Assembly (NCBI GenBank): GCA_019057865.1
Contig: JAHLWP010000001.1
Location: 1 to 64,000, forward strand
DNA: 64,000 nucleotides
Source of the DNA: Promethearchaeota archaeon
GTDB taxonomy: Archaea > Asgardarchaeota > Lokiarchaeia > Sigyniarchaeales > SOKP01
Direction of reading: 5' to 3'
The translations under genes were made by a program, and so were the position numbers. Below the pieces are notes generated by a model that was not told the DNA's origin, ran no database searches, and saw nothing but the letters and a program-made list of their open reading frames with translations. Of the stretch, positions 1 through 44,616 are shown one piece after another (position 1 is the first letter of the stretch; each line of letters opens with the position of its first letter).

Positions 1-116
1 CAGATGAGACTGATGAGGATTTTAATAGCGGATTTCATGAAATGGAAGAATTAACAGATGAGACTGATGAGGATTTTAATAGTGGATTTCATGAAATGGA
101 AGAATTAACAGATGAG
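1..116 (+). repeat. 54-bp tandem repeat (2 near-perfect copies plus the start of a degenerate third), coding an 18-aa acidic unit
   Basis: 1-54 and 55-108 differ at one base (agc/agt); unit encodes TDETDEDFNSGFHEMEEL. Confidence 0.9.
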
Positions 117-3100
117 GAGCTTGATAAGGAATTTGATGAGCAATTTAATGAGATGGAAGAGGAATATGAAAATATCGGTACTCAAAGTACTGTATTAATG
201 CATGAAAATCCCGAAATAGAAAAAGAAGATCAAGAAGAATTTCAAGCTGAAAGTGAGGAATATACTGAGGAGGAAGAGGAGTACCTAGAGAATGAGGAAG
301 AAGCAATAGAGATAGATCCAGAAGAATACGAAAATGACCAAGATCCTATTATTGATACCGAAGAGATAGAATTTGTTAGGGATATGGAAGAATTGGGGCG
401 CATGCTGAAAGAATATGATGAGAAGTTAGGCTATCCTGAAGAAGAAAATGATAATACTGCTTTTAATGCAGAGCAAGCTTATAGGGAAATTAAAGAAAGA
501 AATAGTAATAAAGAAGAAAAGGAAGAGGCCCAAGAATTAGAGAAACAAGAGAAAGAAATTACTGAAAAACAGAAGGAAGAGCATATTGAGGAAATACATT
601 CTGGTGATGCACAAGAGGAAGATGTCAATGATATACCAGAAGCAGCAGAGATAGAGCCAGAAGAGTTTGATTATCTTTGGGAAAAATATGAACAGTATGA
701 ACAAGAAGGGAAAAGTTCTGAAGAAATAAGGAATTTAATGCAGGAAGCAGAAAAAACTTATCAAATGTTAAAGGAAGTGGAAAAACACTATGAACAACAA
801 GAAAAAGAGAAATTGAGGTCAGTTGACCATGAAAATGAAGAAGATGATGAGGATGTAAGAGAAGGGATTGATAGGATAGATGCAATAGAATATCTTGTAG
901 ATACTGAAGAAAAATTACATCAGCAAGGGAATTCTCAAGAAGAAATAGATGATCAGGTGGAAGAGATTGCGAAGGATTTCTTCTTAAGTGAAGTAGAAGA
1001 AGAGGGGCAAAATGAACATATAAAAGATGTGAGTGAAGAACTAAGAATTGAACAGGATGAAATTGATGAAGAACATTTGGCTCTTGAAGGACAAGAACAA
1101 AATGGGCAAATCTCTGTTTATGATAACGATGAAAACCTAGAAGCGCGTCAAGAAATGGATAGAAAAGAACCAGAAGAAGATGTCTACACAGAATTAGATG
1201 ATATCGAAGTAGATGAAGTGCAGTCTTATCAAGAAAGAATTAAGGAGACCATAGAGAAAGAAAAAAAGTCAGAAAGCGAGGAAACAAAGGAAGAAGAATA
1301 CGAACAGCTCCAGCAATTATATCGCCAAGAAACTGGTAAAAGACCGATATATGCTGGAAAAGACACCAAAGGATTTAGCCAATGGTTAGAACAACAAGAA
1401 TTAAAAACTAAAGAATTAGAAGAGGAAGAACAACAAGAGGAGAAATGGCAAAAGAAACTTAAAAAATGGATAGAAAGATCTACCGAAGAAGAGCTCAGCT
1501 CTGAACTTAAAGTGATTCTAAAAGAGATAATCCAAAATTTCCGAGAGTATGAAGAATTAGAAGAATTATATAAAAAATATGAAAATGAACAATTGACTGA
1601 AAAGGAAAGAGAGGAATTGCTATCTATTATAAATACACTCCGACATATAAATCCAATTTACTTACATTTATATTTGAATATAAGGGGGTTTAAAGCATAT
1701 TTTCAAGAAAGTCATTGGTGGAATCCTTGGTTAATTAACGAAATAAAATACAAGTTTCTCAGACATCTTTCTAATAAATATGAATTAATAAGAGAAGAAT
1801 TTTCAAAATCAGATGAAAATTTACCTCATAAACCACTATCCGAAGCAGGTGTGTTAGCAATTCAAGCCTTACAATTAGCAATTTTAACGATATATTATAT
1901 TTGTGAAATATTCCCAAAAAACAGTGAAATTGATAAAAAATTTTTTTCTGGAAGCGAACTAAATTATATTCTTGATAAACATTCTCAATACTTTTATAGT
2001 ATTAAAAAAAAACTAGAAGAGAGCGATTTAATTCAGTATTATGGAATTTTTACGAGAAAAAAGAATGTTAATAATAAGGTATATATAATTACGGATAAGG
2101 GATTAAATTTTGCAATAAATCTTATCAATTCAGAGAAACAACAGTTTCCCAAGCTTTTCAATGAACTAATATTAAGCCTAGAAAAGCGATTTATTGAATA
2201 CAATAAAGAGCTGATTAATACTGAAAATAATAAGAATATTATATATTATTTCAATGACACATTACATCAAGGAATTATTTGTATTTATTTTATTTGCGAG
2301 AAATTTCCACAGTTATTTTCTATTACTAAAAATTACTTTTCTAAAGATGAATTAATTAACGTGATTAACAAGGAATCAAAATTTTTTTCAAAAATTAAAG
2401 AAAAATTAAAAAATAAAAATTTGATTCGATATTATGGTATTTTTTCAAAAAAAACAAAGAGTAATGAAAAAGTATATGTCATAACAGATGAAGGAATAAA
2501 TTTTAGTAAAAAATTAATGGCTTTGAAGGCAAAAACATTTCCAAATTTGTCTGATAATCTACTCTCTATTTTTGAAAAAAGATACATTGAATATAATAAA
2601 GAGCTGATAGACGATAAAAGTGATGGTTATATAATTCGCTCGAAAAAAAATATATCTAATCATCTAAAAAAACTTGCAGAAAAAAACAATTTAGAAATAC
2701 TTAGTTCATTTGAGACTGAGAATAAAGAAGTATCTTTTCGATGTAAAACGTGTACTAAAAAATTTAAAGACACGTTTCGTAAAATAAAAAAAAGACAACC
2801 ACCTCAATTATTTTGTCCTTATTGTTTTCCAGAATTAAAGAGAGGTATATATATTCCTAAAAAAGTAAGAGAAAACATTGCAAAATATGCTTTAATTGAA
2901 TTAAATAAAAAATTTTTTTATAATTTACAAGAGAAGGAAATCTTGACTAATATAACTAAAATTAAAGAAATTGTTTGCAATCAAATAGCATCTCTGATTT
3001 CTGATAAAAATATGGAATTTAAAGAATATATTCAAATATATGTTTATGATATCATTCGTTTTCTAACAAGAATTAAATTATTAAATGAAACAAATCAAAA

Positions 3101-4253
3101 AATAAGTATTAGTAATGTGGCGAAGGAAACTCATAATGAAGATTTAATCAGTTTATCGCAATGGCAGAAGGTCACCAAAGAGATAATAAAATATCTAAGA
3201 GAAGATATTGATTTTAATATTAGGACAAGACTTTATGATAACCAACCCCAAATATTCCAGAATTCAGTTAGAATACATAAAACCTTTTATAAATTAATTA
3301 ATTATAGAACTATTACTTATTTAGATATAGATTATAAAACTAAAATAAAAATAAATTACGATGGCAAATGTCAGGGAATAAATGGACATTGTGAGTTTAA
3401 TATTGATTATAAGTTTTTACCAGCTCTTTCTTATCATCATCTTCTTAAGAATTACAAAAGAACTGTAACAAGAAAAGGTTTTGAATATATTCAACCGAGA
3501 GAGATTATAGCACAAAAATTTGATAAAGCCCTAAAATTAATGCAGACTCAGGTGGGAGGATTAAAATTAGCTTGTACTAACTGTCATTCATTTGAACATG
3601 ATGTAATCTATAACTATTCTTCAATTTTTATTTTTCTAAACTCATTAAGTCTAACTTATATTAATGAAAATCCATCAGGTGTTCTAAATACAATAAAAAC
3701 TCTAACAGACGAATATTACATCCAAAATAAAGAAAATTATAAATCTTCTGTCAGAACTTATGAATCACAACGAAAAGCTGAAATAAAATATCATATAAAG
3801 ACACAAATATTAAAATTTGTAAAGAAAAAATATATAATTGAATTTCTCTTCGGTATGGAATATATCTGCCCTATTTGCAAGAAAACCAATATTAATAGCC
3901 ATCTTAATTGTTTTCATGCACATCACACTAACAATAATTTGTTTGAAAATGGACTTGAAAAAATTACATTTAGTGAAGAATTTAAAACTAAATCCATCGT
4001 TTGGTTAATTAAAAATCTAATAATACAAGAATGCATATATATCTGTGGTAATTGTCATAAAATGCTTCATGCGAAATACTATAGAGATAGTGCTTTAATT
4101 ATACTGAAGAATAAAGATGATGAAAAATTTATTGATGACTTCTATAATAATATGTACGAGAAAATTAGTGGGTTGAGAGATAAGATTTTAAAATGGAAAA
4201 CTAAACTGATAGATAATTCACTCCAATATTATAAATTCCCTTCTCTAAAGTGA
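3..4253 (+). CDS. Giant multidomain protein, probably 5'-truncated by the window edge: acidic low-complexity N-terminus, duplicated wHTH-like domain, Zn ribbon, HTH, C-terminal tandem HNH-like nuclease domains
   Basis: Frame of the 42..4253 ORF is open back to position 3. 131-aa internal duplication with Y.IT..G wing motif; CKTC/CPYC; C..C...LPALSYHH...CTNCH and CPIC...FHAHH...CGNCH. Confidence 0.75.
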   Translation, partial: DETDEDFNSGFHEMEELTDETDEDFNSGFHEMEELTDEELDKEFDEQFNEMEEEYENIGTQSTVLMHENPEIEKEDQEEFQAESEEYTEEEEEYLENEEEAIEIDPEEYENDQDPIIDTEEIEFVRDMEELGRMLKEYDEKLGYPEEENDNTAFNAEQAYREIKERNSNKEEKEEAQELEKQEKEITEKQKEEHIEEIHSGDAQEEDVNDIPEAAEIEPEEFDYLWEKYEQYEQEGKSSEEIRNLMQEAEKTYQMLKEVEKHYEQQEKEKLRSVDHENEEDDEDVREGIDRIDAIEYLVDTEEKLHQQGNSQEEIDDQVEEIAKDFFLSEVEEEGQNEHIKDVSEELRIEQDEIDEEHLALEGQEQNGQISVYDNDENLEARQEMDRKEPEEDVYTELDDIEVDEVQSYQERIKETIEKEKKSESEETKEEEYEQLQQLYRQETGKRPIYAGKDTKGFSQWLEQQELKTKELEEEEQQEEKWQKKLKKWIERSTEEELSSELKVILKEIIQNFREYEELEELYKKYENEQLTEKEREELLSIINTLRHINPIYLHLYLNIRGFKAYFQESHWWNPWLINEIKYKFLRHLSNKYELIREEFSKSDENLPHKPLSEAGVLAIQALQLAILTIYYICEIFPKNSEIDKKFFSGSELNYILDKHSQYFYSIKKKLEESDLIQYYGIFTRKKNVNNKVYIITDKGLNFAINLINSEKQQFPKLFNELILSLEKRFIEYNKELINTENNKNIIYYFNDTLHQGIICIYFICEKFPQLFSITKNYFSKDELINVINKESKFFSKIKEKLKNKNLIRYYGIFSKKTKSNEKVYVITDEGINFSKKLMALKAKTFPNLSDNLLSIFEKRYIEYNKELIDDKSDGYIIRSKKNISNHLKKLAEKNNLEILSSFETENKEVSFRCKTCTKKFKDTFRKIKKRQPPQLFCPYCFPELKRGIYIPKKVRENIAKYALIELNKKFFYNLQEKEILTNITKIKEIVCNQIASLISDKNMEFKEYIQIYVYDIIRFLTRIKLLNETNQKISISNVAKETHNEDLISLSQWQKVTKEIIKYLREDIDFNIRTRLYDNQPQIFQNSVRIHKTFYKLINYRTITYLDIDYKTKIKINYDGKCQGINGHCEFNIDYKFLPALSYHHLLKNYKRTVTRKGFEYIQPREIIAQKFDKALKLMQTQVGGLKLACTNCHSFEHDVIYNYSSIFIFLNSLSLTYINENPSGVLNTIKTLTDEYYIQNKENYKSSVRTYESQRKAEIKYHIKTQILKFVKKKYIIEFLFGMEYICPICKKTNINSHLNCFHAHHTNNNLFENGLEKITFSEEFKTKSIVWLIKNLIIQECIYICGNCHKMLHAKYYRDSALIILKNKDDEKFIDDFYNNMYEKISGLRDKILKWKTKLIDNSLQYYKFPSLK

Positions 4254-10560: not shown

Positions 10561-11850
10561 TTGCTCGACATCGAATTATATAGAAATGATTTGGAAAAGG
10601 TTATTGAATCCGAAGTAAAAAGATTTAAAGATCCATCTAATGCAAGAAAAGTATTAGAATATGACGAAAAATGGAGAGAAGTTTTACAAACTTTACAAGA
10701 TTTAAGGAAACAGAGGAATGATTTATCAATTCAAATTGGAACTTTTAAAAAATCAGGTGATAACAAAAAAGCTGAAAAAGCTAGATTCAAATCGAAAGAA
10801 ATTAAGGACCGAATTGATAAGTTAGAGAAAAAAAAGGTTGAATTTTTTGATCAAAGAGAAAATTATAGATACATAGTTGGTAATATTTTACATGACTCTG
10901 TACCTATTGGTGAAACTGATGAAGATAATGAAATTATAATAACTGTTGGAAAATTACCAAAATTTGACTTTGAACCTTTATCTCATGTCAATTTAATCAC
11001 TAAGATTGATGGAGCAGATACAAAAAAGGCATCTGAAATAGCGGGTTCGAGATTTTACTTTTTAAAGGGAGATTTAGTTTCACTTAATTTAGCTCTGATA
11101 AAATTTGCATTAGATAAATTAATAAATAAGGATTATATTCCAATGTGGCCACCCTTCTTTATTAAATACGAAGTTATAAAAGCAGCGGCAGAATTAGCAG
11201 ATTTTGAAGAACAACTATATAAAATTCAAGATGAAGATCTTTTTATGATTGCCACCGCAGAACAAACATTAGCTGCTTATCATTATGATGAAATTATAGA
11301 CCCCGAAAGATTACCTTTGAAATATGCTGGAGTATCATCTTGCTTTAGACGAGAAGCAGGATCTCATGGAAAAGACACATTAGGAATATTTAGAGTACAC
11401 CAATTTGAAAAGGTTGAACAATTTATTTTTTGTAAACCAGAACATTCATGGAAGCTATATGAAGAGCTGATAGAAAATGTAAAAGAAATTTTTCAGGATT
11501 TAAAAATACCCTATAGAATCGTAAATATTGCGTCTGGAGAATTAAATGATAATGCTGCCAAAAAATATGACCTTGAAGCTTGGTTTCCCGCTTCAGAAAC
11601 ATATCGTGAACTCGTCTCATGTAGCAATTGTACAGATTATCAGGCAAGGAAATTGAAGATAAGAATGGGAAAAGTTGGTTCACAGCAAGCTAAAGAGATT
11701 TTGCATACCTTAAATTCAACTGCAATAGCAACAACGCGAACTATTTGTTGTATATTAGAAAATTTTCAAAATAAGGATCATTCAGTGTCAATTCCAGAAG
11801 TCCTTCAAAAAGATATGAATGGTAAAAAAATTATTAAAGCAATAAAATAA
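10561..11850 (+). CDS. serS: Serine--tRNA ligase
   Basis: N-terminal coiled coil, ATAE, CFRREAG, FRVHQFEKVEQ, ELVSCSNCTDYQ, HTLNST. Confidence 0.97.
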   Translation: MLDIELYRNDLEKVIESEVKRFKDPSNARKVLEYDEKWREVLQTLQDLRKQRNDLSIQIGTFKKSGDNKKAEKARFKSKEIKDRIDKLEKKKVEFFDQRENYRYIVGNILHDSVPIGETDEDNEIIITVGKLPKFDFEPLSHVNLITKIDGADTKKASEIAGSRFYFLKGDLVSLNLALIKFALDKLINKDYIPMWPPFFIKYEVIKAAAELADFEEQLYKIQDEDLFMIATAEQTLAAYHYDEIIDPERLPLKYAGVSSCFRREAGSHGKDTLGIFRVHQFEKVEQFIFCKPEHSWKLYEELIENVKEIFQDLKIPYRIVNIASGELNDNAAKKYDLEAWFPASETYRELVSCSNCTDYQARKLKIRMGKVGSQQAKEILHTLNSTAIATTRTICCILENFQNKDHSVSIPEVLQKDMNGKKIIKAIK

Positions 11851-36689: not shown

Positions 36690-37577
36690 TCAGAATTCAT
36701 AGCCGCACTTTTTACAAACGTGCTTCTTTGCGTACATTGGGATATGACCAACGTAGCTTAATACTTTGCTTTTATCCTCTACAGTTTTGATTTTATTCCC
36801 TACTGCCCCACACATTGGACAAGTTATACGTTCTTCGGAGGCGAATCCCCCTGCGCCAATATCTGGAGGTTTTAATTCATCTAATTCTGTTTCAACTTCA
36901 CTGAGTCGAGAAGTTTGTGCTTCTATTAATTTTTCTTTTTCACCCACAGACTCGGTGAGTTCCTGTAATTTAGTATCTTTCTGTAAAAGTAAATTATTTG
37001 CTTCAGTTAAATCTGAGTTTAATTTAGTGTTTTGTTCTTTTAATTCTTGATTTTCAGATGATATACGGCTAATATCTTCTTCATTAGCGGTGATCTTACT
37101 GTTAGCTTCATTTACTTGATTTTCTAAACTTGAAATTTTCTCTTTTGTAGCCTCTAGTACAGAGCTGATACTTGAAATCTTTTCTTCGGAAGATGAGGAT
37201 ACTTCTGATAATTCTGCTTCTCTTTCTTGTAAGAAACTTTCAATTTCATTTTTTTTAGTATTATTATCTGCTAACTCTTTTTTTGCAGCTTCTAATTTTG
37301 AACTTACATTGTTAATTGTATTCTCTCTCTCACTTGAAATTGTATTTGTTTGTTCAAGATTATTTTTAGTTTCTTCTAGAGAAGCTTGTGTTTGTTCAAG
37401 TTCTGCAGTGGTGGAACCTAATGTGTCATTAGTTGTAGTTAATTCAATTTTAGTCTCAGATAATTGTTTTTCTAAATCATTTACTTTAGCTCTTAAATCT
37501 AGTAAGACCTTACCCTCAACTTTTTGACTTTTATCGGGATGTTCTTCTGCTCTAGCCCAATCGATTGGCATATACAC
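36690..37577 (-). CDS. Long coiled-coil protein with a C-terminal Zn ribbon
   Basis: Heptad-rich middle; CPMCG...CKKCGYEF. Confidence 0.85.
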   Translation of the reverse strand: MYMPIDWARAEEHPDKSQKVEGKVLLDLRAKVNDLEKQLSETKIELTTTNDTLGSTTAELEQTQASLEETKNNLEQTNTISSERENTINNVSSKLEAAKKELADNNTKKNEIESFLQEREAELSEVSSSSEEKISSISSVLEATKEKISSLENQVNEANSKITANEEDISRISSENQELKEQNTKLNSDLTEANNLLLQKDTKLQELTESVGEKEKLIEAQTSRLSEVETELDELKPPDIGAGGFASEERITCPMCGAVGNKIKTVEDKSKVLSYVGHIPMYAKKHVCKKCGYEF

Positions 37578-37718
37578 TCACTATTCTTTTATATTTTAAT
37601 TTTTTTTAATGTTTAATGTTTTTATTAATATATAAATTATAGTGTATTAAGTTTTTAACTATTTTTTACTTTGAGATTTTGAAAACCATTATAGTTTTGA
37701 CCAATTAATATAACCTTA

Positions 37719-38612
37719 GTGAATTATTACCAAAATGTGAAATGTGAAATGGAGAGCAAAAATGAACTACCTTCAGAAGGTGATGTTATATCAACATCCG
37801 GTGTATTTAAAACCCCATTTACATTAATAATTTTAGTACAGTTGTTTATTGGAGGTTTGGTAATAGTAAGTACAAATCTGCTATGGAATCAATCTTATTT
37901 TGCACTTACAGGTCATTATTATTTCTCTTTTGAACCTATTAATGATTGGGTAAGATGGATTTTATTACCACCGAGTATTTATGGAAATATCTTTTTATTT
38001 TGGATCTCGGTAGTGTTATCATCAGCATTAATATATAAAATTTTAAATAAAATCTATCCACCACGAGAAGGTGTTTTTAAAAGAGGAAGTAAGGAGTGGA
38101 AATATACTCATCGAAGGTTTTGGACTGCCTATTTTCCTATTTGGCTCACACGGGCTTTACCATTACCTTGGATGGATATTGCAACCTATAGATTTTTTGG
38201 AGTTCACATTGGTAAGAATGTTGTAGCTTATGAGGGGTATATTGATCCTGAACTTGTAGATATTGGTAATTTTACGATGACTTCAATAAATATCTGTATT
38301 TTTTCACATTTAATTTACCAAGATAAAATAATAATTAAAAGAGTAAAGATTGGAAAAGCTTGTGTAGTAGGCCCTCACACAGTAATAAGTCCTGGCACAG
38401 TTATGCAAGATGGAGCTATCCTTGGAGTTAATAGTTATACAAATATAGGACAGGAATTAGAAGGAAATTTAATTCATGTTGGGACTCCAGTAAGTATGAC
38501 CTTACCAATTCAATCCCTTGAAGAATCTCAAGAAAAGGCTAAAAAAATTAGAGAGGGAACTGGTGATAAACAACTTGATGGAGAAATAGAAAGTAAAAAT
38601 GGAGGCAAATAA
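37719..38612 (+). CDS. Membrane protein with a left-handed beta-helix (acyltransferase-like) domain
   Basis: Two TM segments, PREGVF, FGVHIGKN and hexapeptide repeats. Confidence 0.8.
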   Translation: MNYYQNVKCEMESKNELPSEGDVISTSGVFKTPFTLIILVQLFIGGLVIVSTNLLWNQSYFALTGHYYFSFEPINDWVRWILLPPSIYGNIFLFWISVVLSSALIYKILNKIYPPREGVFKRGSKEWKYTHRRFWTAYFPIWLTRALPLPWMDIATYRFFGVHIGKNVVAYEGYIDPELVDIGNFTMTSINICIFSHLIYQDKIIIKRVKIGKACVVGPHTVISPGTVMQDGAILGVNSYTNIGQELEGNLIHVGTPVSMTLPIQSLEESQEKAKKIREGTGDKQLDGEIESKNGGK

Positions 38613-38618
38613 GAATAA

Positions 38619-38644
38619 ATGTTTCAACCAGCGAGCTTAAAAGG
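38619..38644 (+). pseudogene. Displaced original 5' end (MFQPASLKG) of the gene that now starts at 42277
   Basis: ATG 6 nt after the upstream stop; 8/9 aa identical to 42277-42303; the frame stops at 38664-38666 inside the insert. Confidence 0.8.
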
Positions 38645-38647
38645 CAT

Positions 38648-41467
38648 TTATAAAGATCTAAAATAATCTCTAAAATGATATATTAGAGATATAGCTTCTT
38701 TCCCCATTTTATTTAAATAATATTTAGTAGGATTACTTTTGGTACCACTTTTGGTATTGATATATCGTGTAATTACATCCTTTCTTCTGTAAAAATAATT
38801 ACTTATGCTTGATGTAGTTATTCCCTTAAACCTTGATAGCTTATATAATGTTACATCATCCTCATTCTTTGAAATCTCATTTATAGCTGTTAAATATCTT
38901 TCAATACTACCTGTTGATTTAAAGCCTTTTTCTAAAGGTTCTTCAACTATAGATTTGTTATTATGAATAAGTTTGAAATTTCGATAGATAGAGTCAAAAT
39001 CCTCTTTAATTCTTCTCACTAGTTTTTTATCTTCATAAATTTCATTTAATAAATGAAGTTTCTTATAGTGGATAACTGAATGACAATTTGAACACAAATA
39101 ACCTCCTTTTTCTCGTTCCAGAATTGCTACGATTTCTGAACAGGAATATTGACCATAAAGATCTGATGCATTAACATTTTTTATGTTATCATCTGCATGA
39201 TTAAAATGAAATGCAGGAAGATGTTTTTTAGTTTGAAACTCCATACAAGTAGGACAATAGTTCCCAAAAAAATGTTCAATAATGAATCTCTTTTTTAAAT
39301 ATTTTATAATATTACCCCTAACTCTCTTTTTATCTATTTTTGTCCAATTTTTAGTTAATGGGAAATTTTCCACAGAGACTTTAATAAGAATGTGAATTAG
39401 TTCTACGGGTAAGGACAAAATTTCTTCCCAAGTAATTAAATAAGAGAAGTAGTTAAAGTAACGATCGTGTAGAATATGGTGATGATTCCTACAGATCAAC
39501 TTTACATCTTCTAATTCCACTATTCTTACAATTTCTTCCAAAACATTTGGATCAGATCGATTCTTAGTAAAAAGATTATATAACGCTCCCGCTGTAAATT
39601 GAGTTTCCTTTTTATCGGAATCGTGATGGAATTCTAAAGCATCAAGTCTAGTAATATCCGTATTTAAAACAAATCGTTCTTTTAGACATTCGGGACATTT
39701 AAGCTTTCCAGTTTTAAAATACTTCCCGTTATAAATATTTTTCATAACGAATACTTTTAACTTATTACCAACGATTTTTTCATAATCTTCATGTCTATAT
39801 TCATTTCCCCCATCAAAAAGCCCTTGAGAATTTGAACGAATTTGGAAAAAATCAGGATATTTTTCTTTAAGATAATCATATATTTCAATTACATTGTAAT
39901 AGAATTTCTTAGGGGTTTGAAGAAAGTTTACATCTTTTTCTTCCAAGAGAAAATCAACTACGTATTTAACTATCAGATGAGCCCGTATTCTTTTATGAAT
40001 CCTGCTTGAATTAATCAAATGTTTGACAACTTCTACCAAATCAGAAAGAAATTTGATAAAAGTATCATAATATTGATCTAATATTGTTCGAAGTACATCA
40101 AAATCATTTTGTGATAAATCTTTGGGAAGATCAATATTCATGATAATATTATCTCTTATTCTATCAACAATTTCTGATGTTAAAACCTCTTTATCCTTGA
40201 CTACGCTAAATATATATGCTGAAATAATATTTCTTATTCTGTTGAATCCAGGATATGAAGAAAATCGAAATTCAATTCTTGGATATAAATGCTCGAAGTA
40301 TTTTTTATAGTAACTAGAGATATCGCTAGGTGATTTTATTTCTACTGAAGCTAGTTTAGCGATCCCTTTTCTAGTGATTTTCGGCATGTTTTTGTTTGAT
40401 AAAGCTACAGTATAAACAATAATTGCAGCAATCTTCTCCGTATTTGCATTTTTTGGGATTGTAAATTCATTACTTTTAGCTCGTGAAATAAAGTTTTCTA
40501 ATATCTCGATTGCTATTGAGTTAATTAGTTCTTTTTGACGCTGTGTGCATTCAATTAAATTAATCAAATTTTTTAGATGATTTGTAACTTTTTGTTTAAA
40601 ATTAGGGATGATGAGAGGTTTTTCATTTCTAAGAATCAATTTATCTATTATTGATTGAACATCTTTAATTATTAATTCTTCACTTAATCCAGCCTCTAAA
40701 AACTCATAATAAGCTGAAAAAAGCTCAAAAGCAGATATGCCTTTTATCACAATTGAGGGTGATTTTCCCAATAATAAGGTACAAGTTCCTGCATGAAGAA
40801 TCTTGTCATAATGCTTTTTGATTGTTAAAAGAGATTCATTAGAGGTTTTGTTCAATTGTTTAATATCATTCAAATGTCCTTTTAACCATTCTTTTAGAAC
40901 AGAGATTAATTTATCAGAAAATGGTGGAAACTCATGAATAGAGAATATTTGTGTTTTTTCTCGGAGTATTTGAAGGAAGTTAGTATATTCATCCGCAATC
41001 TTTTTTAATCCTAACTGCAACATTCTGTAGTTTTTCTTTGTATTTACTTCAGATAATACTAATTTTCTTTGTTTTCTACTTAACATTTTCATATACCCCC
41101 TTGATAATCCATCCATATATTTAGAAATGACTTGAGCACCCCTTCCAATAGAATTAGAATACATCCAACTATTTATAAAAGCCGATGCTTCATTGGGCAC
41201 AAATCCTTTAATTTTATCAATCAAATTTTTAGGGGGAAGGCTAGATTTATCAAAGAGACATGCGTTTACAGCTTGGATGAAATTTCCGATAAATTCATCA
41301 ACAAAAACCAAACTAATATTGTGTTTTGAACATTTTGGATACTTTCGAAATCCGAAGACCCCTAATTTCAGAGGTTTTACCTTTTTTAGATGCGTGCATC
41401 CAAAATAAGGACAAATGGCTATTCTTTCTTCTTTTATTGATTTTCTACTTACTTTACTTTCAATCAT
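38648..41467 (-). CDS. Multidomain putative endonuclease: N-terminal Zn finger, TFB/cyclin-like helical domain, tandem HNH-like domains, C-terminal wHTH
   Basis: CPYFGC...CSKH; AIEIL...IAAIIVY......IT..GIAKL; CPEC...LEFHH...ICRNHH and CPTC...FHFNH...LCSNCH; YYLNKMG wing. Confidence 0.75.
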   Translation of the reverse strand: MIESKVSRKSIKEERIAICPYFGCTHLKKVKPLKLGVFGFRKYPKCSKHNISLVFVDEFIGNFIQAVNACLFDKSSLPPKNLIDKIKGFVPNEASAFINSWMYSNSIGRGAQVISKYMDGLSRGYMKMLSRKQRKLVLSEVNTKKNYRMLQLGLKKIADEYTNFLQILREKTQIFSIHEFPPFSDKLISVLKEWLKGHLNDIKQLNKTSNESLLTIKKHYDKILHAGTCTLLLGKSPSIVIKGISAFELFSAYYEFLEAGLSEELIIKDVQSIIDKLILRNEKPLIIPNFKQKVTNHLKNLINLIECTQRQKELINSIAIEILENFISRAKSNEFTIPKNANTEKIAAIIVYTVALSNKNMPKITRKGIAKLASVEIKSPSDISSYYKKYFEHLYPRIEFRFSSYPGFNRIRNIISAYIFSVVKDKEVLTSEIVDRIRDNIIMNIDLPKDLSQNDFDVLRTILDQYYDTFIKFLSDLVEVVKHLINSSRIHKRIRAHLIVKYVVDFLLEEKDVNFLQTPKKFYYNVIEIYDYLKEKYPDFFQIRSNSQGLFDGGNEYRHEDYEKIVGNKLKVFVMKNIYNGKYFKTGKLKCPECLKERFVLNTDITRLDALEFHHDSDKKETQFTAGALYNLFTKNRSDPNVLEEIVRIVELEDVKLICRNHHHILHDRYFNYFSYLITWEEILSLPVELIHILIKVSVENFPLTKNWTKIDKKRVRGNIIKYLKKRFIIEHFFGNYCPTCMEFQTKKHLPAFHFNHADDNIKNVNASDLYGQYSCSEIVAILEREKGGYLCSNCHSVIHYKKLHLLNEIYEDKKLVRRIKEDFDSIYRNFKLIHNNKSIVEEPLEKGFKSTGSIERYLTAINEISKNEDDVTLYKLSRFKGITTSSISNYFYRRKDVITRYINTKSGTKSNPTKYYLNKMGKEAISLIYHFRDYFRSL

Positions 41468-42141
41468 TCAGTAATTTTCACCATTCTCTTCTTTTTCTTT
41501 TTTATTTTTTTATCTTCCATTTGTATTAGATTCGAAATTTCTCCTTCTAATTGTAAATAATTCAGTTTTAATTCAAGATAAAAATCTGAAAATGAAGAAA
41601 AAAATACTGATTCACAGCTACATAATAGACCTGCAATCTGAATTATTACATTTAATAAGCGAGGATGCCGATGTATTTCAAGTTCTGAGAGAATATGAAG
41701 AACCCTCCATATTTTTTTACTTAGATTCCTTATCTCTTTCAAATGTTTTTTATCAATTTCGAGTTGTTTGTTTTTAACATTTTCCATTAGTTTTATTATC
41801 ATTTCTGCGATTTTTCCATCAACAATTCCAATCTTTTTTGATAGAGTAGTGTACTGAGAAAATAACGATGTAAGCTCTCTTTCCCATTTTTTAATAGGAT
41901 TTGGTGCTCCAATAGGTTTTGTTCTATTAGATTCAGATCTACTAGATTTTGAGAATCTCATGCGTATAATCTCACATTTAAAATTCAAAAAAGAGCGTAA
42001 TTGCCTTGAAAGTTCATTGATTCGTTCAGATCCCTCCAGAGAGTACCAGTCAAGAAATTCTGAGCTTTCCCCATTTCCTAATAAAAAAAGATTATCAGAA
42101 ATATCATAGATATCTATCAAATCATCAGTATGATTTGTCAT
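41464..42141 (-). CDS. Hypothetical helical protein coupled to the HNH gene
   Basis: 225-aa ORF with a 4-nt ATGA stop/start overlap; TTTAAATA box 22-29 nt upstream. Confidence 0.7.
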   Translation of the reverse strand: MTNHTDDLIDIYDISDNLFLLGNGESSEFLDWYSLEGSERINELSRQLRSFLNFKCEIIRMRFSKSSRSESNRTKPIGAPNPIKKWERELTSLFSQYTTLSKKIGIVDGKIAEMIIKLMENVKNKQLEIDKKHLKEIRNLSKKIWRVLHILSELEIHRHPRLLNVIIQIAGLLCSCESVFFSSFSDFYLELKLNYLQLEGEISNLIQMEDKKIKKKKKRMVKITE

Positions 42142-42230
42142 AAAAATAAATATTTCTCGTTATATTTAAATAAAAAAAAAGCATTCATTTTCTGATTTAT
42201 AATTCCAATAAATTTTTACTTGAGAATCAC

Positions 42231-42238
42231 TTATATAA
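42231..42238 (+). promoter_or_regulatory. Putative outward-facing TATA box for the restored host gene
   Basis: TTATATAA about 40 nt upstream of ATG 42277. Confidence 0.45.
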
Positions 42239-42276
42239 TCTTTAAAATAATTGTTTCATAATTCCATGTGATTTTA

Positions 42277-43014
42277 ATGTTTTCTCCTGCTAGTTTAAAA
42301 GGTGAATCGCCAGTTCCTATCGATGAAAGAATTCGCAAAAAATATTTTATTCTTTATTTGGTAATCATTATTCTTAGTTTTATTCCTTGTTCATTATTTG
42401 AGTATTTTTATTTCATATCTTTATGGAAAGAACAATTTTACATAATTTTTCTTTTGTTATTGCCTTTTAATATATTTATTTTAATTTATATCCTCCAATT
42501 AAGTGCGATTTTATTTTCATCGTTATTTTTAACATTAATTAAGATTATATACTCACCGAAAGAGGGTGTTTTTAGACGCAACATTGAAGATAAGGATTAT
42601 CTTTACTGGAATTTAAGAAATATTGTGAAAAAATGGCCGTTGTTTATTACAGCTTCAAATCCTTTTCCTTGGCTAAAAAATCGTTTTACATTGAGGTTAT
42701 TTGGAGTGAAAATTGGAAAAAAATGTATATGCGATAATGCCTGGATTTCTTCGGAGTTTGTAACAATTGGTAAAAATGTTATTATTGGTATGAATTCAAC
42801 AGTCATTACTTTCGGGATTGAAAAAGATAATTTTATTCTTAAAAAAATTATTATTGAAGATGATGCACTAATAGGAGCTAAATGTGTGTTATTACCTGGT
42901 ACATTAATTAAAAAGAATGCTAAATTATCAGCACATTCCTATACAAATTATGATGATATTTTAGAAGAAAATTTAATTTATGCTGGTCATCCTGCAAAAT
43001 TAAAGAAAAAATAA
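42277..43014 (+). CDS. Membrane protein with a left-handed beta-helix (acyltransferase-like) domain; paralog of 37719..38612
   Basis: PKEGVF, FGVKIGKK, hexapeptide repeats, YAGHPAK; ATG 42277 is supported by the duplicated start. Confidence 0.82.
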   Translation: MFSPASLKGESPVPIDERIRKKYFILYLVIIILSFIPCSLFEYFYFISLWKEQFYIIFLLLLPFNIFILIYILQLSAILFSSLFLTLIKIIYSPKEGVFRRNIEDKDYLYWNLRNIVKKWPLFITASNPFPWLKNRFTLRLFGVKIGKKCICDNAWISSEFVTIGKNVIIGMNSTVITFGIEKDNFILKKIIIEDDALIGAKCVLLPGTLIKKNAKLSAHSYTNYDDILEENLIYAGHPAKLKKK

Positions 43015-43020
43015 AGGATT

Positions 43021-44616
43021 ATGATAACCGAAAAGAGTTTAACAATGGGAACCTCAGAAAAAGTTAGTAAAAAGAAAAGATTGGTAATTGTTTCAGATAC
43101 TCACATGACTCGTTGGGAAGGAGCGTTTAACCTTCACGCGTATAATGTAGGAATTGAGAAAATTAATAAAATAAAAGATGTGTCTCTTTTCCTTCATTTA
43201 GGTGATATAACTCATACGGGAACTTTATTAGAGTATGAATACGCTATGGAACAATTCAAAAAGTTTAAACCTATTTCAAAAGCTCCACTTATGTTTCTAA
43301 TTGGCAACCACGACAGTCTTAACGTTGGATATTTATTATTCGAAGAAATGATTGGTAGGAGACATTATGAGTATGAAGATGATGAATTATATGTGATTGG
43401 GGTTGATAGCACAAAACCAGATTTACCAGGTGGTATTATCCATCATAATATAAGAGAAGCTGTTAGAAAAAGACTAGAAAAACCAGAAAGGGAAGATAAA
43501 TTTAAAGTAGTGTGTTTTCATCACCAACTCATTCCGATACCCAATACAGGAAAAGAAAGATCAGCTATAGATGATTCAGGAGATATGCTTAAAATGTTAA
43601 TCGATGCTAAAGCAGATTTAGTGCTAAATGGGCATAGACATATTTCAAATCTATATGCTGTTTCCAGTAGTGAAAAAGATTTATATATTTTTAATGCCGG
43701 AACTTTTAGTTGCAATAAAACAAGATATAGAGAACTTTTTACCTATAGTATTATAGATATCTTAGGAAATAAAATCAATTTTAAAATTTTACCTATATTA
43801 GATTCAAATTTTAAGAAAGAGATACATAGGGAGGTTAATTATTATCTCCCTTTAGAAATTGAAATGGATCAAAAACCATTATGCAAATTTATACAATTTT
43901 CAAATTCTTTAATTTCTGCAGACTCAGAAGAGAAATTCACTAATTTAGATAAGGCAATAGATAAGATAAACAAAATAAAAAATATAGATTTAGTTGTACA
44001 TACAGGTAATTTATCTAAAAATAGCTATAAAGAAGAATTTATTATTGCTAAAGAAAAACTAAACAAATTGATTCATCCTCTTTTAGTGGTACCTGGTTTC
44101 ACTGATTCAAAACCTCCCGCATGGGATTATTGGATGAATTATATCGGTTCATTGGATCCTTTATATGAAAATGATAAAATTTATTTTCAGGGAATTAATT
44201 CTACTACTCCGGATTCTAATGAAGGATTTATAGGTCGAAAAAGGCTAAATAGATTCATAGATAAAGTATTAAAACTAAGCCATCAAAAAATATTTGGGGT
44301 GTGTTGTTTTCATAGTTTAATTCCTACACCGCTTTCAGTATGGAGAACAGAGTTAATTGATTCTGGAGATGTTCTCTCTCAATTCGCTCGTACACAAGTA
44401 GATATTGTATTAAATAATACACCAAGTATATCTTTTAATGCAAAGATTGAGAATACAATATTTTCGAATGGAGGAAATCTTGAAGTGGAACGTTTCGATA
44501 ATTCTTTTATTGAAATTGATATTTACAAGAAGGGATTTGTTGTTTTAAAAGAGCATAATTTAAGAACTGGTGAAGTTAAAGTAATTGGTAACTATTACAT
44601 TACAATTTTAATTTAA
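43021..44616 (+). CDS. Tandem calcineurin-like metallophosphoesterase (second domain degenerate)
   Basis: SDTH, GDIT, GNHD, FHH, GHRH in domain 1; FSNS, TGNL, PGFTD, NNTP in domain 2. Confidence 0.85.
   Translation: MITEKSLTMGTSEKVSKKKRLVIVSDTHMTRWEGAFNLHAYNVGIEKINKIKDVSLFLHLGDITHTGTLLEYEYAMEQFKKFKPISKAPLMFLIGNHDSLNVGYLLFEEMIGRRHYEYEDDELYVIGVDSTKPDLPGGIIHHNIREAVRKRLEKPEREDKFKVVCFHHQLIPIPNTGKERSAIDDSGDMLKMLIDAKADLVLNGHRHISNLYAVSSSEKDLYIFNAGTFSCNKTRYRELFTYSIIDILGNKINFKILPILDSNFKKEIHREVNYYLPLEIEMDQKPLCKFIQFSNSLISADSEEKFTNLDKAIDKINKIKNIDLVVHTGNLSKNSYKEEFIIAKEKLNKLIHPLLVVPGFTDSKPPAWDYWMNYIGSLDPLYENDKIYFQGINSTTPDSNEGFIGRKRLNRFIDKVLKLSHQKIFGVCCFHSLIPTPLSVWRTELIDSGDVLSQFARTQVDIVLNNTPSISFNAKIENTIFSNGGNLEVERFDNSFIEIDIYKKGFVVLKEHNLRTGEVKVIGNYYITILI

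Follow-up and report, generated by a model that had tools for sequence, protein, structure and literature searches.

The window considered here comprises 64,000 nucleotides (nt) from the genome of a Promethearchaeota archaeon (assembly GCA_019057865.1, contig JAHLWP010000001.1, positions 1 to 64,000), referred to below as G000. Within it, two host genes, paralogs with 34% identity (E 2e-33), are separated by an inserted element with two genes, coding for a predicted nuclease of 939 amino acids (aa) and a partner protein of 225 aa. The insertion lies at the very start of the downstream host gene, and this start is present twice: a native copy is stranded to the left of the element, and a diverged copy, brought by the element itself, is joined to the body of the host gene. 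Coordinates of all features are collected in Table 1.

Table 1. Element, junctions and flanking host genes in the window
Feature	Coordinates	Strand	Remarks
Upstream host gene, 297 aa	37719..38612	+	Membrane hexapeptide-repeat transferase paralog; weak Pfam Hexapep matches; untouched by the insertion
Stranded native start of the downstream gene, MFQPASLKG, 26 nt, relic	38619..38644	+	Equals the in-situ start of 19/19 empty alleles
Inserted element, about 3.67 kb	38645..42315		Missing from 19 relatives
939-aa nuclease gene	38648..41467	-	Stop at 38648-38650
225-aa partner gene	41464..42141	-	Stop overlaps the nuclease start (ATGA)
Element-borne intergenic region, 135 nt	42142..42276		Divergent promoter-like boxes
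Element-borne replacement, first 13 codons of the host gene (MFSPASLKGESPV)	42277..42315	+	TCT codon 3 and CCT codon 4 in 4/4 occupied alleles
Hybrid host gene, 245-aa hexapeptide-repeat transferase	42277..43014	+	Element-derived 5' end and native body; Pfam Hexapep_2 E 2e-10

The inserted element and its empty sites

The stranded start reads ATGTTTCAACCAGCGAGCTTAAAAGG and begins 6 nt past the stop codon of the 297-aa gene, and the intact 245-aa gene opens with ATGTTTTCTCCTGCTAGTTTAAAAGG at 42277. Besides codon 3, which is CAA in the left copy and TCT in the right one, the two copies mismatch at three wobble positions. Both junctions share the core TTAAAAGG, which on the left is separated from the nuclease stop by a gap of 3 nt. 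Excision of 38645-42302, the 3658 nt between the cores, brings both host genes together. A sequence-only reading that preceded this analysis had described the stranded start, its wobble-only differences besides codon 3 and the core at both junctions, and every one of these statements holds; the deletion rejoins the two-paralog operon as had been claimed, and the TATA-like box said to precede the new start is found as TTATATAA at 42231-42238, about 40 nt before the host-gene ATG. No terminal inverted repeats were found at the insert ends, and an Rfam search of 37500-43500 returned no RNA family. The only shared junction block is 8 nt long, and the exchange point is not the same between alleles.

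The protein of the downstream gene was searched in 40 relatives, and the best locus was examined in 19 genomes of the same genus. The site is empty in all of them: the stop codon of the upstream homolog is followed, 2-8 nt on, by the start MFQPASLKG(D/E)SP. The empty allele predicted from the window alone, ...GG(K)-stop-MFQPASLKG-(D/E)SP, was thus recovered in 19 of 19 relatives. Codon 3 of these alleles is CAA or CAG (19/19) and TCT in none (0/19); the start codon in L019 is GTG (VFQPASLKG). Judged by its score, the 9-residue match of the two starts in the window is borderline, being equalled by 6% of unrelated flank pairs. The starts are nevertheless truly related, because all 19 relatives show the native start at the empty site, and chance similarity as a candidate explanation is ruled out by the same alleles. 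For the same reason, the left copy is the ancestral start, which has remained at its original position.

The sister genome G012 is empty as well and has native codons, with both flanks 95-97% nt identical to those of G000; gene by gene, the 297-aa gene is 94% nt identical and in G012 directly abuts the downstream gene, and the body of the 245-aa gene shows 95% nt identity. Past the right TTAAAAGG, four extra differences between G000 and G012 (GAATCGCCAGTT vs GATTCACCAACT, 4/12 nt) precede the return to near-identity. The imported tract therefore measures about 39-44 nt and not 26 nt, and the right boundary of the element, placed from this tract of differences and from the drop of identity between G000 and L083 (an occupied allele described below), falls at 42316-42320. 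The earlier claim of a 26-nt recoded replacement start consequently stands as to the recoded copy and has to be corrected as to its length, the tract reaching about 42315-42320 (about 13 codons, MFSPASLKGESPV).

The same element occupies the same site in three metagenomic contigs of other species (L083, L096 and L097), where the nucleases are 75-83% identical and the same ATGTTTTCT start is used. All four occupied alleles, G000 included, have TCT at codon 3 and CCT at codon 4; the recoded start is therefore owned by the element, and it is no fresh target-site duplication, as the sequence-only reading had maintained. The donor-like tract GAATCGCCAGTT past the core, of only about 13 nt, is present in G000, L083 and L097 and absent from L096, and it is also found in the empty allele of genome G004. 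Residues after the core read ESPVP in G000, L083 and L097 and native-type DSPTP in L096, therefore the right exchange point varies. The G004 allele itself (L024, G004:C105) has CAA at codon 3, yet continues with the element-type CCT GCT and the ESPVP tract (GGTGAATCGCCAGTTCC); this allele either belongs to the lineage from which the replacement start was donated or was left behind as a footprint when the element was lost.

Across the four occupied alleles, the 135-nt intergenic region is 90-95% identical, compared to 81-88% for the two element genes. This region (42142-42276) is the most conserved stretch of the element and contains two divergent TATA-like boxes. The stranded start is undecayed in G000, mutated in L083 (TTG..GTT..AAGAG), where it lies about 110 nt away from the nuclease stop, and missing in L097. 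The left junction is free to decay, and an undecayed relic in G000 as opposed to decayed or deleted ones in other hosts points to insertions of different ages. Identity at third codon positions between G000 and L083 amounts to 71% and 77% in the element genes, versus 52% and 48% in the host genes. Together with the empty site of the sister genome G012, this higher third-position identity of the element argues for horizontal spread and not shared ancestry, and the element is accordingly younger than the split of its hosts. Its distribution is patchy, the N-terminal module of the nuclease being present in 5 of 54 genomes of the genus, with four cassettes in this genome. Near-identical copies of the locus were found in 20 sequencing runs from 11 studies, covering marine sediments, seeps and vents. 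So far, the element family has been seen only in Loki-type (Promethearchaeota) archaea.

The predicted nuclease and its partner protein

The 939-aa protein is composed of an N-terminal block with four Cys/His residues (C19 C24 C46 H49), read as a zinc ribbon, followed by a helical module, a cyclin fold, two HNH-type units and a winged helix. Its AF2 model (pLDDT 82) is almost entirely helical. Residues 283-399 match the cyclin fold of TFIIB and archaeal TFB (VIA-align Z 11.8 and 11.6, rmsd 2.1-2.4, 95-100 residues), and residues 850-939 match winged helices of MarR/DtxR type (VIA-align Z about 10.8). The PDB sequence search with the whole protein gave no match, a profile search of PDB sequences matched only the DtxR/SloR-type winged helix, and whole-protein Foldseek returned helical-repeat noise only. 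When the C-terminal model was used in Foldseek, VIA and Atlas searches, only winged-helix regulators were retrieved, and the Atlas feature search with residues 1-560 gave nothing usable (0.76, DUF530).

The HNH-type units are located at about 584-671 and 729-809, and their mutual homology is seen from the detection of unit 1 by the profile of unit 2. Invariant residues in 23 homologs are C591 C594 H614 H615 C659 H662 H663 in unit 1 (CxxC...HH...CxxHH) and C738 C741 H757 C792 N794 C795 H796 in unit 2 (CxxC...H...CxNCH). In the model, each unit presents a strand, a strand and a helix, in agreement with the pattern of metal and catalytic residues of HNH on a beta-beta-alpha core. Pfam gave no match in the 939-aa or the 225-aa protein, and two of the 23 family members match Pfam HNH, at E 0.19. 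The unit 2 profile retrieves 451 proteins among 1.8 billion, most of them with two units. Ten distant unit-2 relatives were compared with Pfam HNH (cut-off 21.4 bits): P0201 (22.1) and P0204 (24.4) lie above the cut-off, P0197 and P0174 just below. Through these two of ten relatives, the nuclease motifs are tied to Pfam HNH by transitive homology. Among Atlas features, phage HNH clusters are found at 0.92-0.94. With two HNH-type sites per chain, a single molecule would suffice to cleave both strands.

About 66 proteins have the N-terminal module. In relatives with the same N-terminal part (~300 residues), HNH is replaced by LAGLIDADG_3 (E 1e-12 and 1e-11); LAGLIDADG is the classic family of homing endonucleases. 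Paralogs of the nuclease on contigs C58 and C87 of the same genome likewise have different C-terminal halves. No recombinase or transposase domain was found in either protein of the element by Pfam, PDB sequence search or fold matches, which assigned no known fold to the 225-aa protein or to nuclease residues 1-280, and no terminal inverted repeat was detected, in accordance with the earlier remark that no recombinase is recognisable at the locus.

A second tandem-HNH protein is encoded at 3-4250 of the window (plus strand); it has at least 1416 residues, runs off the window start and possesses a different N-terminal part. Both its units are found by the unit 2 profile (whole-protein E 7.5e-13). 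Further proteins ending in tandem HNH plus winged helix are encoded on C83 (11062-15045), C65 (26007-28088) and C87 (26392-27726); these three are without the N-terminal module, and no adjoining homolog of the 225-aa protein was found. The tandem-HNH part thus stands on different N-terminal parts, therefore the nuclease head has been shuffled.

Four homologs of the 225-aa protein are encoded in the genome, and they adjoin exactly the four proteins with the N-terminal module. In 13 of 18 fetched family loci, the nuclease gene is directly preceded by a gene of about 201-260 aa; L084, L085 and L088 repeat sites that are included elsewhere in this count, and L081 and L082 are left unscored. Modelled as a complex, the 225-aa protein and residues 1-280 of the nuclease gave an ipSAE of 0.82 vs 0.45 for the best control, a mark reached by 58 of 80 solved complexes and by 2 of 110 mismatched pairs. 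Contact agreement between the runs was at least 75%, and the pLDDT of the partner was at least 70. Binding of the 225-aa protein to nuclease residues 1-280 is thus supported by modelling. A T-run with the motif ATTTAAATATAA forms a promoter-like box for the 225-aa gene on the minus strand (about 42160-42181), and in most family members aligned a T-run and ATTTAAATATAA box lies about 25 nt 5' of the small gene.

Related cassettes and a candidate mini-intron

Besides the window copy, the genome (4.26 Mb) contains three more two-gene cassettes, on contigs C60, C58 and C87; paralogous cassettes within the genome share 40-54% identity. The C60 site is empty in G012 and G046. In G000, the native first 65 codons of its alcohol dehydrogenase (ADH) gene are stranded upstream together with the promoter, 99% identical to G012, and a foreign 5' copy of about 65% identity, accompanied by new upstream sequence, is joined to the native ADH body. 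The junctions share the short identity block AAAAGATGTGG. The C87 site, empty in G012, shows the same arrangement at the opposite end of a gene: an isomerase-like gene is native to about 36720 and then passes into a foreign 3' end (36735-36908; 78% identity to G012), and beyond the cassette a foreign fragment (40318-40720; 72-77%) is followed by the native 3' end and downstream DNA. The crossover falls within 580 nt of homology. About 350 nt located 5' of it (C87 36345-36700; L032:3345-3700) are 100% identical to G012, compared to about 93% for the remaining gene; this stretch beside the insertion may be a recent gene-conversion tract. At L092, a 43-residue 3' end of a helicase gene is duplicated on either side of the cassette. 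The expectation that homologous cassettes are flanked by a stranded gene end and a diverged replacement is therefore borne out at C60, C87 and L092, and the replacement of gene ends is a habit of the family. Flank duplication is recurrent in the family; to call it universal would go beyond the evidence.

The C58 cassette is present in G012 too, at 97% identity; it displaces about 63 nt upstream of a methyltransferase remnant and has no visible duplicate. The remnant, of a DNA methyltransferase gene that is intact in G046, lies downstream of the cassette (C58 32250-32355; L034:10250-10355) and carries a tandem triplication of a unit of about 40 nt (GATAC.TTGGAAATCCTCAATCA.TTTGAA), with copies from about 32260, 32290 and 32320. 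The flanks of L078, considered as a further duplicate, are ordinary paralogs instead.

On C60, at 11314-11349 (L033:5314-5349, minus strand; also at about L093:9298-9333), the ADH frame is broken by a 29-nt insert. It is situated at the joint of the element-borne first exon and the native ADH body, within the invariant zinc-binding motif of ADH (GICGSD). The insert folds as a canonical bulge-helix-bulge (BHB), with a 4-bp GUGG/CCAU helix, two AAU bulges and a 9-bp inner hairpin, and taking out the 29 nt restores the frame RCGICGS. L093, from a second species, has kept it, apart from a single stem pair that is U-G in place of U-A and a loop that differs. We regard it as a candidate BHB mini-intron in a protein-coding gene; one lineage of the family thus appears to use a rare feature. 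It may be speculated that the mini-intron serves at C60 as recoding does in the window. A giant 4.2-kb intron, by which the native first exon of C60 would be spliced, was also considered and rejected as weak: as read from the sequence, its inner helix would have only 2 bp, and the pairing is not among the six listed by the BHB scan.

Mechanism, rival explanations and known systems

We propose that the element is probably a free-standing homing-endonuclease element, the archaeal counterpart of the mobile open reading frames (mORFs) of fungal mitochondria. A homing element had already been suggested from the sequence of the window, and all computable predictions of this suggestion came true, which supports it. 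The element would produce a two-subunit protein, consisting of the 225-aa partner and the 939-aa chain with its several DNA-binding modules. This nuclease would recognise and break the start region of an empty allele around TTTCAACCA...TTAAAAGG, and repair of the break would copy from an occupied allele, with two homology arms, the upstream gene plus the stranded start to the left and the gene body to the right. The payload copied between the arms would comprise the nuclease gene, the partner gene, the promoter region and the recoded first 13 codons. As insertion severs the downstream gene from its operon, the element would keep it expressed by supplying a new start and a putative new promoter. 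Occupied alleles would be spared, since the target would be matched neither by the interrupted left junction nor by the recoded start, in which CAA CCA has become TCT CCT and wobble positions have changed. Variable crossover points, including that within long homology at C87, fit repair or gene conversion and not a fixed att core. Taken together, the varying exchange points, the C87 crossover, the swaps between HNH and LAGLIDADG and the lack of any detectable recombinase favour nuclease-driven homing.

Several observations weigh against this proposal. The 939-aa protein of the window itself stays below the threshold of Pfam HNH (PF01844), and solved HNH structures are absent from the fold-search lists, which were filled by winged-helix and cyclin matches. 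Flank duplicates were not detected by tblastx at about ten other family loci (none at L086, L087, L089, L090, L091, L093, L094, L095 and C58, and likewise none at L079, L080, L035 and L036), in a test that would miss short duplicates such as the 9 residues of the window. The fast evolution of the element genes (75% aa and 71% third-position identity) also fits decay or an arms race. The same final anatomy would result if a circle with a gene fragment on it entered by one crossover. Finally, protein conservation within the family is highest in the N-terminal module and the 225-aa partner, and these two could be integration machinery. The last point can be extended into a reading of its own, which we consider possible and offer tentatively: the N-terminal module and the partner would be a new machine for targeting or integration, with interchangeable heads, that patches the gene ends it breaks. 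The heads (double HNH, single HNH-like or LAGLIDADG) would then not be the core of the family, and patching would proceed by recoding where the protein tolerates it and by the 29-nt BHB mini-intron where an invariant motif is hit, as at C60. If true, these cassettes would represent a distinct class of archaeal gene-end-replacing mobile elements, beyond another homing endonuclease.

The most serious rival to homing, which we nonetheless hold to be unlikely, is an integrative circle, consisting of the cassette and a fragment of the target gene, that enters by a Campbell-type single crossover with the nuclease as passenger or stimulator. The reaction would be driven by a site-specific recombinase, either one acting in trans or a novel one made up of the N-terminal module and the partner, or else by homologous recombination of the host. 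Direct repeats of a gene fragment around a cassette are the exact product of such a crossover, and the two foreign pieces at C87 (40318-40720 and 36735-36908) would be one contiguous 3' fragment in the circle. The short identity blocks at the junctions, TTAAAAGG here and AAAAGATGTGG in C60, could be understood in the same way; however, the crossover varies between alleles of the same site and lies in long diverged homology, which speaks against a fixed core. Nor can a one-point reciprocal exchange account for G000, where the foreign tract extends about 13 nt beyond the core and the left copy ends at the core. A conserved N-terminal module and partner without assigned function leave room for a new recombinase, but integrase, resolvase and DDE domains were not detected in either protein, the almost all-helical model is unlike RNase-H-fold or resolvase cores, and swaps of HNH and LAGLIDADG on one N-terminal module are typical of homing endonucleases.

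It is much less probable that the cassette is an old, immobile insertion, inherited vertically and lost in most lineages, whose genes have been domesticated to serve, for instance, in regulation or as a nuclease in defence. The transcription-factor-like domains of the protein would suit such a role, and age would agree with the paralogous cassettes of one genome being only 40-54% identical, with the C58 copy common to G012 at 97% identity and with the same element recurring in 20 runs from 11 studies. Against this stand the cleanly empty G012 with native codons between flanks of 95-97% nt identity, the stranded start that is intact in G000 and decayed or deleted in other hosts, and a third-position identity of the element far above that of host flanks. 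Even more improbable, in our judgement, is an archaeal BHB intron with a homing endonuclease, spliced from the host transcript. Elements of this kind, with homing endonucleases in rRNA introns, are found in Crenarchaeota, and the junction insert of the C60 lineage is a textbook BHB, restores the frame on removal and is conserved in L093. In the window, however, the BHB scan of 38601-38700 against 42201-42360 yielded only pairings with nonsensical splice products, although the same scan recovers the BHB of C60; the host gene is contiguous with the element-borne start, which makes splicing unneeded, and the cassette is antisense to the host gene. At C60 itself, the native exon end combined with the shared 3' half would form only the 2-bp inner helix, by which a 4.2-kb intron is poorly supported.

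Through the cassettes, hybrid genes arise and coding sequence is transferred horizontally, on a small scale, between Asgard-type archaeal species; such transfers can mislead gene phylogenies. Their products form a family of large modular nucleases that are probably very specific and could be characterised as rare cutters; modules of interest include two active sites per chain, the winged helix, the TFB-like domain and the partner subunit.

Among known systems, integrase-borne islands and proviruses restore their target, a tRNA or protein gene, by a gene fragment carried at attP. As in our case, the insert lies between direct repeats of a gene end, and the gene stays intact thanks to the copy on the element. 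Islands, however, rely on a tyrosine or serine recombinase and on an identical core at a fixed position; in the cassettes no recombinase was detected, identity of the repeats amounts to 65-78%, and the crossover points vary. LAGLIDADG endonucleases of the I-DmoI and I-PorI type, encoded in archaeal BHB introns, are likewise archaeal homing endonucleases, and the lineage of C60 and L093 has a BHB mini-intron at its junction; the window copy differs in that it is without a junction BHB, resides in a protein-coding operon and rescues its target by duplication and recoding, not by splicing. The Seg and Mob proteins of T-even phages are free-standing homing endonucleases that spread by "intronless homing". 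As would be the case for the cassettes, they spread without intron or intein by cutting the allele that lacks them, and their carrier is spared through differences in the target; the phage genes co-convert their flanks. Unlike the cassettes, these phage genes are intergenic, have no duplicated recoded gene ends and code for single small GIY-YIG or HNH proteins.

The closest anatomy is that of fungal mitochondrial mORFs with a foreign gene C-terminus, described for atp6 of Allomyces macrogynus and for atp6, atp9, cox2 and nad3 of Glomus (PMC3630166, where Paquin et al. 1994 is cited for mORF elements). In these, an endonuclease ORF brings a foreign C-terminus that forms a hybrid gene, the native C-terminus is left behind, and movement is reported to be by the endonuclease of the mORF (PMC3630166). 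Both systems have in common that the endonuclease ORF is accompanied by a diverged version of the end of its target gene, that a functional hybrid gene arises and that the native end persists as a displaced duplicate; of the two copies, the native one agrees with close relatives and the inserted one is foreign, and neither intron nor intein is involved. This combination of an endonuclease ORF, a foreign end in use and a displaced native end is found in the window, at C60 and at C87. No report of gene-end-replacing cassettes in archaeal chromosomes and no description of the element family were found in the literature; in a paper on mobile elements of Asgard archaea, the HNH proteins treated are only the small PacI-like ones of viruses (PMC11529989).

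In several respects the archaeal cassettes are new compared to fungal mORFs. Their host is an archaeal chromosome and not an organelle, and the mORF is an ORF fused in frame with, or co-directional behind, the 3' end of its host gene, whereas the cassette has two genes with their own promoter and is antisense to, or separate from, the host gene. Not only 3' ends are replaced here; 5' ends together with the promoter are replaced as well. The nuclease differs as well, being a large multidomain chain with double HNH (LAGLIDADG in relatives), a TFB-like domain, a novel conserved N-terminal module and a partner. These comparisons suggest that gene invasion by means of a spare gene end, free of introns and inteins and known from fungal mitochondria, also takes place in archaeal chromosomes, and that it works with 5' ends too, where the element must supply a promoter in addition to the coding sequence.

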